A DNA stretch of 64,000 nt from an uncultured Collinsella sp. GTDB taxonomy: Bacteria > Actinomycetota > Coriobacteriia > Coriobacteriales > Coriobacteriaceae. Positions 5,384 through 41,907 of the stretch are shown one piece after another. Location of the stretch: NCBI GenBank assembly GCA_902466395.1, contig CABQQR010000002.1:110184-174183 (forward strand), given 5' to 3'. The notes under the pieces were generated by a model that did no database searches, was not told where the DNA came from, and saw only the letters and a list, made by a program, of their open reading frames with translations. The position numbers and the translations under genes were made by a program. Numbering within the stretch: position 1 is the first letter of the stretch; each line of letters opens with the position of its first letter.

Positions 5384-5689
5384 ACTGTTTGCCCCAGACC
5401 ACGCCCGATGTTTTTTCTGGCACGGGGATAAAAATAGATTTGCTCCGAATGATTATTTAATCCCCGTCCCGAAATTGAACCGCCCCTCATTTCTTGAACA
5501 TTAGAAATGGGGGCTTCTTTATGGACGGGAGAGTCAGGCACGACGCCACGCTGAGGACTCTTGCAGCAGAGCTTTGCGACAGGGGGTGCGGGCGCGCCGA
5601 AGGCCAGCGGGAGGCCGAAGGGTGCCCGGACCCGGCCGGGGCCGGCGGCGTGCGAGGGCAAGCTCATGCGACGGAGCTGCTGCCCGGGC

Positions 5690-5850
5690 GCCTGAAGGAC
5701 GAATTCTACAGGAGCCGGACGTGGCGGAGCTTCGAGGAGTTCAAGCGGGACCTCGAAGCCTATACCGTTCACTGGAACAAGAGGAGGCGGGTTAAGCAAA
5801 AGGGACTGACCCCGGAGGAGTTCCGAAATCAGTCCCCATGTGCGGCATAG
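5690..5850 (+). pseudogene. Remnant of an IS3-family (integrase-core) transposase C-terminus
   Basis: Frame +1 encodes ...LKDEFYRSRTWRSFEEFKRDLEAYTVHWNKRRRVKQKGLTPEEFRNQ, the pattern typical of IS3-type OrfB C-termini. There is no intact upstream transposase domain or start. Local GC is very high (about 68%). Confidence 0.45.
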
Positions 5851-11761: not shown

Positions 11762-12763
11762 ATGGATACACTGCTTGAGGCCATTGACGTTTGCGATGTC
11801 GATGGCTTTTGCTTTGGCAACTACACGGACGAGGAGGCCGGCACCGGTTGCACCGTAATCGTGGCACCCGAGGGCGCCACCGGCGGCGTTGACGTTCGCG
11901 GCGGTGCCCCGGCATCGCGCGAAACCGACCTGCTGCGTCCCGAGAACACCGTCGACAAGGTCCACGCCGTCTGCCTTTCGGGCGGATCGGCCTTTGGCCT
12001 GGAGGCCGCAAGCGGCGTCGCTCGCGAGCTTGAGAGCCGCGGCATCGGCCTTCCCGTCGGCCCCACGCAGGTGCCTATCGTGTGCTCCAGCTGCATCTTC
12101 GACCTCGCCTTTGGCGACCCCGCCGTACGCCCCGACATTGAGGCTGGCATCTCCGCCGTGCGCGAGGCGCTCGACAACACCCCCACCACGCTCGAGCAGG
12201 GCAATGTAGGTGCCGGCACCGGTGCCACCGTGGGCAAGCTCATGGGCCCCGCCACCTGCATGAAGGCCGGCCTAGGCGCTGCCGCCGTGGCACTCGGCCC
12301 TGTTAAGGTGGGTGCCGTGGTCTCGGTCAACGCCTGCGGCAATGTCGTCGACCCCTTCACCGGCGAATGGGTCGCTGGTATGCGCGCCGCAGCAGATAGC
12401 GACCAGATCGTCGACATGGAGCTCGCAGCCTTTGCCGCCGCCGGATCCATGCAGATGCCGCTCGACCGCACCAACACCACCATCAGCTGCATCGTCACCA
12501 ACGTGGAACTCACTAAGGCACAAGCCACCAAGGTCTCCCAGATGGCCGCAGACGCCTACGCACACGCCATCCGTCCCACGCACACCACCAACGACGGCGA
12601 CACCATCTACACCCTCGCCAGCGGCAAACTGGGCGCCCAGGCAAGCGCCGCCGTTCCCCTAGACCTGCTGGGCATGCTCGCCGTAAGGGCCCTACAGACC
12701 GCCATCGTAAACGGAGCCAAAAACGCCAAAACCTCCCACGGCATACCCGGCGCCGCAAAGTAA
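11762..12763 (+). CDS. P1/S58 family peptidase (DmpA/L-aminopeptidase-like)
   Basis: GTGCTVIVAPEGATGGVDVRGGAPASRETDLLRPEN...HAVCLSGGSAFGLEAASGV shows DmpA/ArgJ-like fold motifs, including a self-processing Gly-Ser/Thr region. Confidence 0.75.
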   Translation: MDTLLEAIDVCDVDGFCFGNYTDEEAGTGCTVIVAPEGATGGVDVRGGAPASRETDLLRPENTVDKVHAVCLSGGSAFGLEAASGVARELESRGIGLPVGPTQVPIVCSSCIFDLAFGDPAVRPDIEAGISAVREALDNTPTTLEQGNVGAGTGATVGKLMGPATCMKAGLGAAAVALGPVKVGAVVSVNACGNVVDPFTGEWVAGMRAAADSDQIVDMELAAFAAAGSMQMPLDRTNTTISCIVTNVELTKAQATKVSQMAADAYAHAIRPTHTTNDGDTIYTLASGKLGAQASAAVPLDLLGMLAVRALQTAIVNGAKNAKTSHGIPGAAK

Positions 12764-12775
12764 ACTAGCTCGTCC

Positions 12776-13156
12776 GGTTGCCCGGTGGGGTTTGGTTATG
12801 TTTGCTGCTCTACAGTCCTGGCTCGCACGAAGAGCACATTAAGTGCTCTTCGGCTCGTGCGGAACTCGCGACAAACATAACCAAACCCCACCGGGCAACC
12901 TACCAACCAAATTCTTTTCAGCCCAGGCCCCTTTGTACCACGCGTCGAAGATCTTCAAATTCAACTTCCTGACAATCGATTCTTATAGCAGAGGCCCCTT
13001 GGCCTTTAGTTTGATACAAGTTCCGCACGAGCCGGAAAGCACTTAATGTGCTTTCCGTGCGAGCAGGACTGTTCGCAGTAGCAAACTAAAGGCCAAGGGG
13101 CCCAGTCAACCTATCAGCAGCGATTACTCAGCAGCTAGTTGAATTTGAAGATCTTT
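12776..13156. repeat. Complex nested inverted-repeat region between convergent genes, ending in an inverted partial copy of the GT2 3' end
   Basis: Pair A/A' is a 27-bp perfect IR (12776-12802 and 12874-12900) that encloses hairpin B (12811-12866). Pair B/B' (12811-12866 and 13019-13075) are imperfect inverted copies of about 55 bp. Pair F/F' is a 21-bp perfect IR (12991-13013 and 13082-13102) that flanks B'. Pair D/D' is an 18/19-bp IR (12948-12966 and 13138-13156); D' is the last six codons (KIFKFN) of the GT2 gene, and D lies in a degenerate inverted copy of that 3' end (LYHASKIFKFN). Confidence 0.8.
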
Positions 13157-14166
13157 GAGGCAAGATGGTATAGGCCGAGTGTGGTTTTGTCTCCGGCCCG
13201 TCCATGCAGGTTGGTAAAGAATCCGACCACGCCGTAGCGAGCGCGACGATACATGCGCTCGTCGTACTCCTTCAGGTCCTTCCACAGCGTCTTCAGGCGC
13301 TCATCGGCACAATCTTCCTCGGAAAGCTTGGTGAGCACCGAGCAAATAGCCATCATCATGGTGAAGTAGCCCATCATGTACGAACGCAGACGCGAGGACT
13401 CAACGTCCTGGTACAGGTGGAACGATTCCATCATGATGCGCGTTATGCGGAACTGCTGACCCAGGCGCTTGACCATCGTAGCCTCGTTGACGCTCTGGCC
13501 CTCGCGACCGATAAAGTAGCGATAGAGGTCGATGTCGGCGTAGTACATGGTCTTGCAGCGCGGCAGCGGCACGTATGCGTAGATATTATCCACGTAGAAC
13601 GTGTGTGCCGGCATAGGCAGATTGGACTCGCGCAGTACGTCGGTGCGATAGCACAGGCTGTGCATGAGCAGGTTCTGATCGGGACGGAAGTGTCCGATCT
13701 GGTCCCAAGAGAAAATCTTTTTGCGCGGCAGGGCAAACTTGTAGCCAATAGCGGTATGCGTGCCCTCGTAAACCTTCTCGTACACGTAGTTCGAGATAAA
13801 CAGGTCGACGCGCTGGTCGCGCTCCTCAAAGCCACGCAGAATCGACAGCATGGTCGAAAGCGCCGCACCGTCGAGCCAGTCGTCCGAGTCAACGACCTTA
13901 TAGTACGTACCATGCGCCTCACGCAGGCCCGAGAGGACGGCGATACCGTGGCCGCCATTCTCCTGGTGCACCGCGCGGATGATTCCAGGATAACGGGCCT
14001 CCCACTCGTCGGCCTTGGCGGCCGTCTCGTCCTTGGAGCCGTCGTCCACCACGATAATCTCGATATCGGTGGCGTAATTGCTCCCCTCCAAGATGGAGGT
14101 GATGCAATGGTCCATATCCTTGGCGGCGTTATACGAGGGAATACCGAATGTTATGACTTTATGCAT
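13135..14166 (-). CDS. Family 2 glycosyltransferase
   Basis: MHKVITFGIPSYNAAKDMDHCITSIL...IEIIVVDDGSKDET...VVDSDDWL is the GT-A fold (DxD). The start ATG at 14166 overlaps the glf stop by 8 bp. Confidence 0.8.
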   Translation of the reverse strand: MHKVITFGIPSYNAAKDMDHCITSILEGSNYATDIEIIVVDDGSKDETAAKADEWEARYPGIIRAVHQENGGHGIAVLSGLREAHGTYYKVVDSDDWLDGAALSTMLSILRGFEERDQRVDLFISNYVYEKVYEGTHTAIGYKFALPRKKIFSWDQIGHFRPDQNLLMHSLCYRTDVLRESNLPMPAHTFYVDNIYAYVPLPRCKTMYYADIDLYRYFIGREGQSVNEATMVKRLGQQFRITRIMMESFHLYQDVESSRLRSYMMGYFTMMMAICSVLTKLSEEDCADERLKTLWKDLKEYDERMYRRARYGVVGFFTNLHGRAGDKTTLGLYHLASKIFKFN

Positions 14167-15361
14167 GGCAGGCGATAATCTCATCCGAAAGATCGAGGGC
14201 AGAATTGGTCACGGCGTCCATATCGTAGTAACGATACTCGGCCAGACGACCCACCGGGTGGAAGTTCGTCAGGTTCTGGACGCGCTCAAGGTAGCGCTCA
14301 TAGAGCTCACGGTTCTCGGGCTCCAGAATAGCGTAGTACGGCGTCTCGCCCGAGCCGGGCGTATAGGCCTTGGAGTACTCCTTCATGATGGTGGTCTTGC
14401 CGGGCAGGACCTGACCAGTCATGTTCTTGAACTCGGTGATGCGCGTATAGTCCTCGCTCGTGGTGTAGTTGACGGTGCCCACGGGCTGGAACTGGTCCAT
14501 ATCGAGCGTCTCGAACTTCATATCGAGCGTGCGGTACGGCAGCGCGCCCAGGTCGAGGTTGAATAGCTCGTCGAGCGGACCGGTGTAGACGATCTCGCCG
14601 CCATAGACCTTGCCGTCGATCTTGACGGTGGTCTCGTCGATTTCAAAGAGGTCACGGGCGTCTACGTCACAGAATACGTCGATCAGATCGTGATCGAGCA
14701 TATGCTCGAACAGCGCGGTATAGCCGTCCTGCGGCATGCCCTGGAAAGGAGCCTGCGGGAAGTAGCGATCGTCATCGCCCACAAAGACGGGAACGCGGCC
14801 GGTGATCGAGGGGTCGATCTGGTCGGGCGTCTGGCCCCACTGCTTCATGGTGTAATGCAAAAAGACGTTCTCATAGACATAATCGGCGACCTCGGCAAGA
14901 TCCGGGTCGTTCTTCTTGCGCAGCTCCATAATGGGCACCTTGACGTCCTTGCCAAAGGTCTCCACGAGCTTCTGATACAGCTCCTCGCCGCGCTCATCGC
15001 CAAAGGCGAGCTTGAGGCTCGCATGGTTAAAGGGTACGGGCATGAGGGTGCCGTTGATGTTGGCGAGCACCTTGTGCTGGTAGTCCGTCCACTTGGTAAA
15101 GCGCGACAGGAAGTTATGGACGCGCTCATTAAAAGTGTGATAGATGTGCGGACCGTACTCGTGGACCAGGATTCCGGCCTCGTCAGTGCAGTCGTAGGCA
15201 TTACCCGCGATGTGGCCGCGACGTTCCAAAACGGCAACACGATAGCCGATAGTTTCGGCAAGACGGCGGGCGCAAACGGCACCGGCATAACCGGCGCCGA
15301 CAACGATCATGTCGTACGCACCGGCATTAAAGCCTTCAGGCAGGCCTGAGGTAATCTGCAT
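14159..15361 (-). CDS. glf: UDP-galactopyranose mutase
   Basis: FAD-binding N-terminus YDMIVVGAGYAGAVCARRLAE, then ...YGPHIYHTFNERV... and full-length Glf similarity. AAGGAG RBS before the ATG at 15361. Confidence 0.9.
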   Translation of the reverse strand: MQITSGLPEGFNAGAYDMIVVGAGYAGAVCARRLAETIGYRVAVLERRGHIAGNAYDCTDEAGILVHEYGPHIYHTFNERVHNFLSRFTKWTDYQHKVLANINGTLMPVPFNHASLKLAFGDERGEELYQKLVETFGKDVKVPIMELRKKNDPDLAEVADYVYENVFLHYTMKQWGQTPDQIDPSITGRVPVFVGDDDRYFPQAPFQGMPQDGYTALFEHMLDHDLIDVFCDVDARDLFEIDETTVKIDGKVYGGEIVYTGPLDELFNLDLGALPYRTLDMKFETLDMDQFQPVGTVNYTTSEDYTRITEFKNMTGQVLPGKTTIMKEYSKAYTPGSGETPYYAILEPENRELYERYLERVQNLTNFHPVGRLAEYRYYDMDAVTNSALDLSDEIIACHA

Positions 15362-16589: not shown

Positions 16590-16720
16590 GAAGGCCGTAC
16601 GGGCTAACCCCTGAAAACGTCCTCGACCAATGAAACGCCCCCGTTCTGCTCCTTCGGAGCTACGAACGGGGGCGTTTCTGGTCTGCGGAATGTTTTCAGG
16701 GGTTAGCCCGTACGGCCTTC
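16590..16720. repeat. 29-bp perfect inverted repeat flanking an inner terminator hairpin, downstream of pta
   Basis: gaaggccgtacgggctaacccctgaaaac at 16590-16618 matches its exact reverse complement at 16692-16720. The inner hairpin is aaacgcccccgttc...gaacgggggcgttt at 16633-16676. Confidence 0.8.
16633..16676 (+). terminator. Hairpin terminator candidate for pta (14-bp GC-rich stem, weak T-tract)
   Basis: Stem aaacgcccccgttc / gaacgggggcgttt, followed by tctg. Confidence 0.45.
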
Positions 16721-16865: not shown

Positions 16866-16904
16866 AGCAAAAAGGCCTCCTGAGCTGCTGCTCAGGAGGC
16901 CTTT
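16866..16904 (-). terminator. Rho-independent terminator after ackA copy 1
   Basis: Hairpin aaaggcctcctgagc / gctcaggaggccttt, followed on the minus strand by TTTTGC. Confidence 0.6.
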
Positions 16905-16926
16905 CGTTCAATCGCAAGCGAACGCA

Positions 16927-18105
16927 CTAGTTATTCGCGGTCAAACGCTCGACGTCGTGGGCGATCATGTATTCCTCGTCGGTGGGGATGACCATGACCG
17001 TGACGGAAGAGCCGGCGGCGCTGATGACCTGCGGGCCGTTACCCACGGCCTCGCGGTTCTTGTTGTTGTCGATGCGCACGCCCAGCCACTCGAAGCAGTC
17101 GCAGAAAGCCTTGCGGATCGACCAGTCGTTCTCGCCAATGCCGGCGGTAAAGGTAATGGTGTCCACGCCCGCCATGGAAGCGATCATGGAGCCGGCCTGC
17201 TGCATGGCCTTGTAGGCGAACATATCGAAGGCAAGCAGGCAGCGCTCGTCGCCCTCGGAGGCGCGCGTGCGGATGTCACGGGCGTCGTTGGAGATGCCCG
17301 AGATGGCAAGCAGGCCGGACTGCTTGTTCATCATGTCGTCGACTTCCTGGTAGCTGTAACCGCCCTCGCGCTGCAGGTAGCATACGGTAGCCGGGTCAAT
17401 GGAACCGCAGCGGGTACCCATCATCAGACCGTCAAGCGGCGTGAGGCCCATCGTGGTGTCGCGGCACACGCCGTCCTCGATAGCAGCAAGCGAAGCACCG
17501 TTACCCAAATGGCACGAAAGCAGACGGTGGCAGCGCGAACCCAGGATCTCCTTGGCCATCATCCACTCATAGCGGTGGCTCGTGCCGTGGGCGCCGTACT
17601 TGCGCACGTGGTACTTGTCGCACACGTCCTTGGGCAGCGCGTAGGTATAGGCGACCTCGGGCATGGTCATGTGGAACGAGGTGTCGAAGACCGCCACGTT
17701 GGGCAGCTCCGGATACTTCTCGCGGCAATATTCGATTGCCGCGGCCTCGCCGTAATTGTGCAGCGGGGCGAGCGGAGCAACCTCGAGGATCTTAGCCATG
17801 ACCTCATCGTCGACGACCGCGGAATCATCGAAGTGCCAGCCACCCTGAACGATACGGTGGCCGATGCCATCGATCGTAAAGTCGGTCTTCTCGAGCTCCT
17901 CGAGCACGCGCGCAATGGCGCAGCGATGATCGGGAAAAGGAATCTCCTCGGTCTGCTTGGCACCACCGTTCTCGGAGTGGCCAAAGATGCCCATCTCCGA
18001 GCCGATACGCTCGCAGTTGCCCTTGGCGAAAACCTCGCGGGTATCGGTATCCAAAAGCTGATATTTAAGGCTCGAGCTGCCGGCGTTGACAACAAGTACG
18101 TTCAT
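16927..18105 (-). CDS. ackA: Acetate kinase (copy 1)
   Basis: MNVLVVNAGSSSLKYQLLDTDTREV... with full-length acetate/propionate kinase family identity, 392 aa. Confidence 0.92.
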   Translation of the reverse strand: MNVLVVNAGSSSLKYQLLDTDTREVFAKGNCERIGSEMGIFGHSENGGAKQTEEIPFPDHRCAIARVLEELEKTDFTIDGIGHRIVQGGWHFDDSAVVDDEVMAKILEVAPLAPLHNYGEAAAIEYCREKYPELPNVAVFDTSFHMTMPEVAYTYALPKDVCDKYHVRKYGAHGTSHRYEWMMAKEILGSRCHRLLSCHLGNGASLAAIEDGVCRDTTMGLTPLDGLMMGTRCGSIDPATVCYLQREGGYSYQEVDDMMNKQSGLLAISGISNDARDIRTRASEGDERCLLAFDMFAYKAMQQAGSMIASMAGVDTITFTAGIGENDWSIRKAFCDCFEWLGVRIDNNKNREAVGNGPQVISAAGSSVTVMVIPTDEEYMIAHDVERLTANN

Positions 18106-18269
18106 GAGACTCCTTTGCAGTGCGATACGGTCGGCGCAGACCCCTTAAGGCGGCCGCATGTTAATAAGAAGTTATCACAACTTGATAAATAGCTATCAGG
18201 CATATCGCCCAACGAGTACAAAAGAGGAGCTGAACGGCGCTCGGTCGTCCAGCCCCTCCCCTCTTGCAA

Positions 18270-19448
18270 TTACTTGCCGTTGACGATGCGCTCGACGTCG
18301 GAAGCGATCATGAACTCCTCGTCCGTGGGGATGACAAAGATTTTGACCTTGGAATCCTTGGCAGACAGGCACCATGCGCCGTCACCACGCAGGGCGTTGC
18401 GGGCATGATCCATCTTGACGCCCATAAAGGCCAGGCGGTCGGCCACGCCGGCGCGGACGGCAGGAGCGTGCTCACCGATGCCGGCAGTGAAGACCAGGGT
18501 GTCCATACCGCACATGGAGGTGGCCATCTCGGCAGCCTTGGCGGCAATCTTGTAGACGAACATATCGAAGGCGAGCTGGGCCTCGGGGTCACCGGCAGCG
18601 GCGAGCTCCTCGACGTTGCGGCAGTCGTTGGTCTTGCCGCCGGTCACAGCCAAAAGGCCGGACTTCTTGTTCATCATCTCGTCGACCTCGTCGAAGGTGT
18701 AGCCGCCCTCGCGCTGCAGGTAGCACACGGTAGCCGGGTCGATGGAGCCGCAGCGGGTGCCCATCATGACGCCGTCGAGCGGCGTCAAGCCCATGGTGGT
18801 GTCCATGCACTTGCCGTCCTCGATGGCGCACAGGGAAGCGCCGGAGCCGATATGGCACACGACGACCTTGCGGGCCTCGCCGTTGGTCATCTCGGCGACC
18901 TTCTTGGAGATGTAGCGGTAGCTGGTGCCGTGGGCGCCGTACTTACGGATGTGCAGCTTGTCGCAGACGTCCTTGGGCAGGGCGTAAGTCTTGGCGACCT
19001 CGGGCATGTTGAAGTGGAAAGCGGTGTCGTAAACCGTGACGTTGGGCAGGTCGGGATACTGCTCCAGGCAGTACTCGATAACGTTGGCCTCGGGGTTGTT
19101 GTGCAGCGGGGCGAGCGGAGCGACCTCGCGGATCTTGGCGAGGACATCCTCGTCGACGAGGGAGGAATCGCCAAAGTACCAACCGCCCTGAACGATACGG
19201 TGGCCGATACCCTCAATCTTGACGCCGTTGGCCTCGAGGTCCTTCAGGACAACCTCGATGGCGACCTTGTGGTCGGGGAACTCGATGTTCTCGGTCACCT
19301 TCTTGGAGCCGTTGGCAGCATGGGTGAAAGTGCCGCCGGTAAAGCAGACGCGCTCGCAGGAGCCCTTTGCGGACACCTTATGGGACTTGGTATCGATGAC
19401 CTGATACTTAAGGGTCGAAGATCCTGCGTTGACGACCAGAACGTTCAT
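18270..19448 (-). CDS. ackA: Acetate kinase (copy 2, tandem paralog, about 60% identity to copy 1)
   Basis: MNVLVVNAGSSTLKYQVIDTKSHKV..., 392 aa. It is colinear with copy 1 along its whole length. Confidence 0.92.
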   Translation of the reverse strand: MNVLVVNAGSSTLKYQVIDTKSHKVSAKGSCERVCFTGGTFTHAANGSKKVTENIEFPDHKVAIEVVLKDLEANGVKIEGIGHRIVQGGWYFGDSSLVDEDVLAKIREVAPLAPLHNNPEANVIEYCLEQYPDLPNVTVYDTAFHFNMPEVAKTYALPKDVCDKLHIRKYGAHGTSYRYISKKVAEMTNGEARKVVVCHIGSGASLCAIEDGKCMDTTMGLTPLDGVMMGTRCGSIDPATVCYLQREGGYTFDEVDEMMNKKSGLLAVTGGKTNDCRNVEELAAAGDPEAQLAFDMFVYKIAAKAAEMATSMCGMDTLVFTAGIGEHAPAVRAGVADRLAFMGVKMDHARNALRGDGAWCLSAKDSKVKIFVIPTDEEFMIASDVERIVNGK

Positions 19449-19568
19449 GTGTCTCCCTACTAACAGGCGGTGTGGCGCCGCCAGGTTACATACGCTTCAA
19501 TAATAAACCCAAACGCCCTCGCGCTCGGGTTTATTGCGTTGATATATAAGTTATCGGTGCCCAAATAC

Positions 19569-32973: not shown

Positions 32974-33097
32974 TTCACCACCGACAGCAACCGCCCAACG
33001 CAAAAGGCCTCGGCTCGCACCAAACGAGCCGAGGCCTTTACTGTTTCACCAGATAAAACCTACCAAAATAAACCTGTCCCTTTTGGCAGGTCGGAAG

Positions 33098-41528: not shown

Positions 41529-41907
41529 AGAGGTTCCTTTCATGGGTGCGCGTCGGTTGCCATCTATTGTGCCGCAAGATTGCCACACCCTTATTTCCAG
41601 CATATCCTTGCATTTTTTAAACGTTATACACGAATACTCTTGTTTGGTAAAGTGCAACGTGGTAGGGTTTTTACCACTTGATAGAGGCGCGGGCACGAAG
41701 AACCGCGGGCGAGCCGGCAGGCTTTGACCCCGTGGGGAGGCGAAACCCGCCGAACCGGGTTTTTCGGGCACGAACAACCTGGTGGGCCTGCGGGAAACAC
41801 CCACAGGACTGTCTGCAGCAATGCGGGAGCGCTATCCGGACATTGGGTCCTTGCTATGCGGATTCGATGCGCAGATGGCGCCGTCTGGATAGCGAGGTTT
41901 ACGGGAC

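Follow-up and report, generated by a model that had tools for sequence, protein, structure and literature searches.

The structure of about 380 bp that lies between two convergent genes of this Collinsella sequence consists of two facing copies, elements A and B, of a dispersed family of intergenic palindromic repeats. We consider it probable that these elements are REP/MITE-like palindromic repeats with arms that are kept perfect, and are extended into the neighboring DNA, by fold-back template switching, and that they do not form a switch. The window referred to below is the whole stretch of DNA that was analysed, 64,000 nucleotides in length. The features of the locus are as follows.

11762–12763, plus strand: S58 family peptidase gene (Pfam Peptidase_S58, E = 7.7e-32), convergent, upstream.
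12776–12900, plus strand: element A, a 125-nt palindromic repeat (covariance model R1, 110.6 bits, E = 3.7e-21).
12942–12988, plus strand: inverted and degenerate duplicate of the end of the GT2 gene, forming the left outer arm of the palindrome that surrounds B.
12993–13102, minus strand: element B, a 110-nt palindromic repeat (R1, 107.1 bits, E = 2e-20).
13111–13161, minus strand: the copied original, comprising the last nine GT2 codons (13138–13161), the stop codon (13135–13137) and 24 nt of 3' UTR.
13135–14184, minus strand: family 2 glycosyltransferase (GT2) gene (Pfam Glycos_transf_2, E = 1e-22), convergent, downstream.
14159–15361: UDP-galactopyranose mutase (GLF) gene, next after GT2 (Pfam GLF, E = 2.9e-63).

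Many gut metagenome contigs carry an identical S58 peptidase protein; an exact look-up of the GT2 protein of the window matched no record. Loci near-identical to that of the window are present at L028 and L033 (C. aerofaciens). No promoter-like site was found in 12764–13134, and a terminator scan gave nothing meaningful between the S58 peptidase and GT2 genes.

The original prediction described four interleaved inverted-repeat pairs of 27, about 55, 21 and 18 bp. All four are present, with slightly different sizes.

Pair 1, 12776–12804 / 12872–12900: 29 nt, 100% complementary.
Pair 2, 12821–12876 / 13009–13064: 56 nt, 86% complementary.
Pair 3, 12993–13017 / 13078–13102: 25 nt, 96% complementary, 21 perfect.
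Pair 4, 12942–12971 / 13132–13161: 30 nt, 87% complementary, with a 19-nt exact core.

These pairs are better read as two opposed and related hairpin elements plus an outer palindromic layer around B. This layer corresponds to pair 4, with the end of the GT2 gene as its right arm. The predicted folding energies of the 380-bp region are -210 and -215 kcal/mol for the two strands (z = -17.8 and -15.3), and none of 100 shuffles was as stable. Element A has perfect 29-bp arms (12776–12804 and 12872–12900) enclosing an asymmetric core (12805–12871), which holds ACAGTCCTG, an apical hairpin of 10 bp with an ATTAA loop (12828–12852) and CGTGCGGAACT. The arms of element B are located at 12993–13013(17) and 13078(82)–13102, with a core match at 13019–13072 and an apical hairpin at 13033–13057. 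A and B have in common a core of ∼67 nt composed of ACAGTCCTG, an apical hairpin of 9–10 bp with the ATTAA loop and CGTGCGGAACT, and the apical hairpins differ by compensated changes (GAAGAGCAC/GTGCTCTTC versus GGAAAGCAC/GTGCTTTCC). The outer stems of A and B are unlike in sequence and each pairs perfectly. The shared core pattern has two matches in the 64-kb window versus 0.00 expected.

The family extends well beyond this locus. A tighter core pattern located at least 119 loci in species-representative genomes, and the 140 copies extracted from these listed loci represent at least 23 groups when sorted by their flanks. The covariance model R1, built from 67 copies, added about ten further copies beyond the core pattern. 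The family is almost confined to Collinsella, and a few copies come from other Coriobacteriia; among the loci listed, nearly all are titled Collinsella or Coriobacteriaceae and a few Eggerthellaceae. Two loci from an assembly labelled Methanobrevibacter smithii (L050 and L113; CAVHBE010000088.1 and CAVHBE010000073.1) both carry the element, probably owing to bin contamination. A search of viral contigs with a loose core pattern gave two genuine copies, each with a 34-bp perfect stem, and a BLAST search of a phage collection with 12776–13161 gave no match. All of the family copies are intergenic. With gene calls that are crude (ORFs filtered on GC3), convergent contexts are enriched and divergent contexts depleted (42 '>E<' versus 7 '<E>'), and in tandem contexts there are 32 antisense and 16 sense copies. 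Rfam contained no match to 12000–14000 at E values up to 1 and, at the gathering threshold, no family matching the elements in the window and five element loci, Collinsella-1 (RF01700) included. No description of the family was found in Rfam or in the searched literature on Collinsella hairpins, inverted repeats or MITEs.

Each copy contains a conserved asymmetric core of ∼70 nt between long, perfectly complementary arms. The core motifs GTCCTG and TGCGGAAC surround a small covarying hairpin, and the consensus is a single long hairpin that has, in addition to the outer stem and the apical hairpin, a small internal loop with C.A and U.G and a bulged helix (AGU-CUG / CGG-A-ACU), both conserved, and a middle helix specific to the subfamily. 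In the alignment of the copies, 96.2% of the cells are paired compared with 69.7% after shuffling, and double changes occur in 26 of the 33 pairs. The covariation score is 0.69, compared with 0.19 for shuffles (none of 500 reached 0.69) and 0.11–0.16 for slid partners. That ACAGTCCTG and CGTGCGGAACT do not vary is due in part to the pattern used for the search, as variants found with the model retain only GTCCTG and GCGGAA; distant relatives (window 16590–16720 and L045) still hold GTCCT and GCGGAA. The asymmetric core is conserved and has fixed motifs and a bulged A, which implies that it is read by a protein or as an RNA or DNA fold. A relation to group II intron domain V, considered for a GAGCC..GGAAC-like string in the core, was dropped as Rfam gave no intron match.

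The arms are locus-specific, with G-rich 5' arms and perfect Watson–Crick runs of up to 55, 49, 44, 42 and 41 bp. Among near-identical variants, every variable site in perfect arms of at least 25 bp (24 of 24) is mirrored in the opposite arm, and these sites include a T/C change in element A of the window that is compensated in other genomes. Uncompensated intermediates also occur, for example at L033 and L099. At orthologous loci the arm identity is 0.89 and the flank identities are 0.95 and 0.89; the arms therefore evolve at approximately the rate of the flanks, yet remain complementary. An allele of element B at L006/L055 has compensated arm changes and another apical hairpin. Its divergence is restricted to the stretch between the outer arms, and L006 and the window have an identical element A at a distance of ∼100 nt from it. 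In the copy at L119 (4812–4919) the normally asymmetric core has become a perfect palindrome, with 5' and 3' halves that are exact reverse complements over 24 bp, and the model scores it on both strands; here, one half has been overwritten with the other half as template. Three copies (L024 6696–6803, L123 66–174 and L127 300–408) are chimeric, with non-complementary arms that each match an arm of another element elsewhere, which implies recombination between copies. Furthermore, one and the same locus can carry different core subfamilies in different species. The idea that the variable arms are guide-like 'spacers' was rejected by eye, as they look like diverged relatives with CCCGG / GGGGCGGG and TTAAG motifs in common and not like unrelated inserts.

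Perfect arms and a conserved core would also be accounted for by selection on RNA if the elements were structured RNAs, that is, hairpins in 3' UTRs or small RNAs acting as terminators, mRNA stabilizers or RNase III substrates. This we regard as unlikely. It accords with the strong covariation, with two conserved U.G pairs on the sense strand, with the avoidance of divergent (promoter) spacers noted above and with the placement of A and B, which have the same sense as their respective upstream genes, begin 12 nt (A, past the S58 peptidase stop codon) and 32 nt (B) past the stop codons and lie where no canonical terminator separates the two genes. However, a U-tract is absent after both stems (3' flanks TACCAACCAAAT for A and TCTGCTATAAGA for B), antisense copies outnumber sense copies in tandem contexts, and wobble is not enriched, with 129 G.T-type and 120 A.C-type mismatches. 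The two strands differ in RNA folding energy by +0.6 ± 2.4 kcal/mol (sense minus antisense), and in 33 of 81 copies the sense strand is the more stable one. Additionally, perfect Watson–Crick stems of 40–55 bp and the capture of flanking DNA described below are not predicted by RNA-level selection, and the Rfam searches gave no family. The lack of strand bias in mismatches, folding and orientation favors a property of DNA, or of both strands, over a strand-specific RNA.

The elaborate bidirectional terminator offered in the original prediction is possible as a side effect, since the convergent genes have no canonical terminator between them. However, a U-tract is missing after both hairpins. 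The elements resemble intrinsic bidirectional terminators in being GC-rich hairpins between convergent genes at a position where relatives have a canonical terminator, and differ in stems that are three to five times longer, a conserved 70-nt loop and the missing U-tract. Canonical terminators are found elsewhere in the window (16873–16905 and 33003–33038). The elements may also serve as strong transcript-end hairpins between convergent genes.

The gapped similarity between 12942–12988 and 13111–13161, of which the latter is the right outer arm of the B palindrome, extends over 51 nt with z = 15 against shuffled flanks. An inverted partial copy of the GT2 3' end had been proposed from the outset, and it is genuine as a degenerate, gapped similarity over these 51 nt. 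The copy contains the A-S-K-I-F-K-F-N codons, a stop codon destroyed by a 3-nt gap and 3' UTR; at L147 it still reads AACTAGCTG, with the TAG stop retained. The C-terminus of GT2, which ends in GLYHLASKIFKFN followed by the stop codon, is conserved in ∼115 of the 120 best homologues, including that of Coriobacterium glomerans, and the comparison of C-termini envisaged in the original prediction thus shows conservation across the Coriobacteriaceae. The C-terminus is therefore ancestral and constrained. Its conservation marks the gene end as the original and 12942–12988 as the copy. In related species, GT2 loci without A and B (L142, L143 and L145) lack the inverted copy, and an ordinary terminator immediately follows the GT2 stop codon. 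Within the palindrome, the third position of the Ser codon (window 12947 and 13156) is variable across strains in the gene arm (TCA, TCT, TCG) and also in the copy (TCG, TCC, TCT), and by eye it is mismatched between the arms in the window, L028, L065 and L128. The 5 nt just beyond the copied stop codon (12961–12965) are hypervariable.

Degenerate inverted copies of the last 35–55 nt of the adjacent gene are placed across the element at three further loci, with the genes confirmed by Pfam.

L062, L063, L069 and L082: flank copy at the end of the NrdD gene.
L085 and L104: flank copy at the end of the TsaD gene.
L108: flank copy at the end of the peptide deformylase (Def) gene.

These gene ends are native, as the Pfam matches confirm NrdD, TsaD and Def and the NRDD profile is matched to its last position. 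Inverted copies of a terminator (by a tRNA gene) and of other flanks are found at L035, L074, L138, L056, L137, L073 and L103. The presence of flank copies at independent loci makes flank capture a property of the family.

The compensated arms, the L119 core, which is the clearest pointer to a mechanism, and the flank copies fit with fold-back template switching, and in bacteria template switching has been proposed to preferentially correct imperfect inverted repeats (PMC5941160). The arms behave as DNA palindromes and not as a strand-specific RNA, and a change in one arm comes to be copied into the other. In the mechanism that we propose on the basis of these outcomes, replication or repair would switch templates within the strand at the hairpin (fold-back template switching). 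Copying would sometimes run beyond the base of the stem, placing unique flanking DNA in inverted orientation on the other side. At element B, such an overrun would have duplicated the 3' end of GT2 (nine codons, stop codon and 3' UTR) in inverted orientation; protein-level selection would keep the GT2 copy intact, leaving the non-coding copy to drift and decay. Copies also recombine or convert with one another, and the elements are probably selfish or neutral repeats that persist at the 3' ends of genes.

Some observations are less readily accommodated by this mechanism. The perfect stem of B and the copied flank are separated by an unmatched step of 4 nt on one side versus 8 nt on the other, which is not predicted by a single clean fold-back event. 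No template-switch event was caught between near-identical strains, and the perfection of the arms could instead come from strong selection for the hairpin. No empty site with clean borders was found, the matches between the flanks of other loci and the window being limited to a 42-nt motif and one piece of ∼100 nt, neither of which represents an empty orthologous site, so that mobility rests on the multi-locus distribution. Direct repeats at the borders, with the true borders being uncertain, equalled the re-paired control for 70 unique flank pairs and give no target-site duplication.

A protein could be involved instead, in the manner of REP/RAYT or of the ends of IS200/IS605 elements: a structure-specific enzyme encoded elsewhere in the genome would bind the bulged core, folded as a hairpin or cruciform, and mobilize or copy the elements, and flank capture would be a product of the reaction and not a replication error. 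The asymmetric core with its predicted bulged A, in which GTCCTG and GCGGAA are kept even in distant subfamilies, is consistent with such recognition, as are the multi-locus distribution and the shuffling of core modules between copies. We nevertheless give this reading a low probability. No transposase-like gene recurs beside the elements, the sole protein family common to more than two locus groups near them is an ABC ATPase, target-site duplication is absent, the stems are unlike REP stems in not being conserved in sequence, and the partner protein is purely hypothetical. A broader and similarly doubtful proposal is that the Coriobacteriia possess a palindrome-building system in which the bulged hairpin core is recognized by a dedicated, hypothetical enzyme or is processed at replication forks. 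If so, the perfect arms, the movement or conversion of copies and the inverted copying of adjacent gene ends would all be due to this activity, which would represent a new bacterial route to inverted duplications and to new 3' sequence beside essential genes.

The original prediction favored a phase-variation switch that replaces the C-terminus of the glycosyltransferase, in which recombination at the 30-nt arms or at the inverted cores of A and B would change the C-terminus or 3' end of GT2. Cell-surface glycan loci are often phase variable, and GT2 and Glf form such a locus; moreover, inverted repeats bracket a short segment, with one arm overlapping the last codons of GT2. The idea is nonetheless not supported and highly improbable. 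Ten metagenome contigs and nine genome loci all have one orientation, as given by assembly consensus, and a scan of metagenome contigs for inversion junctions matched only L147, which is non-inverted and has a left copy that retains the TAG stop. Comparisons of core orientation across orthologous loci were consistent in 232 cases versus 15 apparent flips, which, judged from a few cases (L055/L128, the B/A pair of the locus of the window, and copies at contig ends), look to be due to partner elements. Pfam detected no gene for a tyrosine or serine recombinase within ∼11 kb (called genes from 1480 to 24800), which upholds and extends the earlier remark that no recombinase gene is adjacent; the region holds only a truncated rve_2 fragment. 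This fragment (window 5479–5850) is a short ORF that matches the C-terminal part of an rve_2 integrase core (E = 1.5e-10), and it is probably an IS-element remnant. An inversion would do no more than append a read-through tail of ∼60 residues to the conserved GT2 C-terminus, and the same architecture is present beside genes that are not phase variable (NrdD, TsaD and Def). Compared with invertons, the locus is alike in the inverted repeats that bracket a short segment by a surface-glycan gene, and differs in its single orientation, in the lack of a recombinase and of a promoter or alternative coding end, and in the occurrence of the same architecture beside housekeeping genes.

Palindromic repeats maintained by fold-back template switching are the reading that we consider probable, and they may be compared with known repeat families. 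Like the REP/BIME and REPIN sequences of proteobacteria, the Collinsella elements are short, non-coding intergenic hairpin repeats at many loci, mostly located at gene 3' ends and between convergent genes and often in inverted pairs. REP stems, however, are conserved in sequence and 20–40 nt in length, whereas the Collinsella stems are locus-specific, perfect and up to 55 bp; REP and REPIN sequences have a conserved palindromic unit, whereas here the asymmetric loop or core is conserved and the stems vary. No RAYT-like gene was seen in the 2.5 kb around the copies, and flank capture is a feature of the Collinsella family and not of REP. The elements resemble MITE, ERIC and Correia sequences in being non-coding, 100–170 nt in length and present in several copies with long hairpins, in both orientations relative to transcription and with recombinant copies. 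The dispersal expected of a MITE is seen in the at least 23 loci and in the related-species GT2 loci that lack A and B. Unlike MITEs, the family has no conserved terminal inverted repeats or target-site duplication, no related autonomous IS was seen and no transposase recurs beside the copies, and the arms evolve in concert within a copy and differ between copies. The MITE insertion footprint suggested in the original prediction comes close to what is observed, namely two copies of a dispersed palindromic family. The elements work like intergenic palindromes of the REP/ERIC/MITE type and fail the defining tests of each of these families.

What is known of quasipalindrome correction comes mainly from mutation reporters and from inverted repeats that are short. 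The closest parallel to the arms is this process (the Ripley model; PMC5941160), which explains perfect arms, compensated changes, the L119 core and the flank copies, and the outcomes that it leads one to expect are those observed (24 of 24 sites compensated and a perfect palindrome in the L119 core). The difference is that it would here act repeatedly on a specific family and copy 35–55 nt of gene ends. No description of template switching that copies 35–55 nt of gene ends in a repeat family was found.

The elements constitute an uncatalogued repeat family in one of the commonest genera of the human gut. Many contigs end inside a family copy, so the family probably breaks short-read assemblies. 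The dozens of loci offer a natural test of whether palindromes are kept perfect by arm-to-arm copying or by selection, and the same loci could show long palindromes growing into neighboring genes. Inverted repeats that overlap a gene end mimic a phase-variation switch, and inverton finders will flag such loci.

Several further repeats and features were noted in the window and in related loci. A third long hairpin (16590–16720) begins 15 nt past the stop codon of the phosphotransacetylase gene and contains a perfect 29-bp outer stem (16590–16618 / 16692–16720) and a 15-bp inner stem. It retains GTCCT and TGCGGAA, scores weakly with R1 (27.6 bits, E = 0.0015), has a relative of the same subtype at L045 1898–2021 and probably represents a distant subfamily of the A/B family. 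The adjoining tandem pair of acetate kinase genes lies on the minus strand (16927–18144 and 18270–19496), and a lysine riboswitch is located on the plus strand at 41674–41842 (Rfam RF00168, 74.8 bits). The 42-nt motif CTGTTTCACCAGATAAAACCTACCAAAATAAACCTGTCCCTT stands alone at 33043–33084, adjoining a canonical terminator, and recurs in twelve other loci with 92–100% identity. Ten of its 15 matches are 2–55 nt from a core-pattern element, some of them between paired copies, and three more (L119 and L060) lie ∼130 nt or less from copies found only with the covariance model; the motif may be either a repeat that accompanies the family or a target that it prefers. At L143 (3620–3760), GT2 is followed by a canonical terminator and then by a different palindrome of ∼150 nt (CGAAATAGGTACCCTAAATAG ... 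CGATTTAGGGTACCTATTTCG), which suggests that the genus contains other families of long-hairpin repeats.
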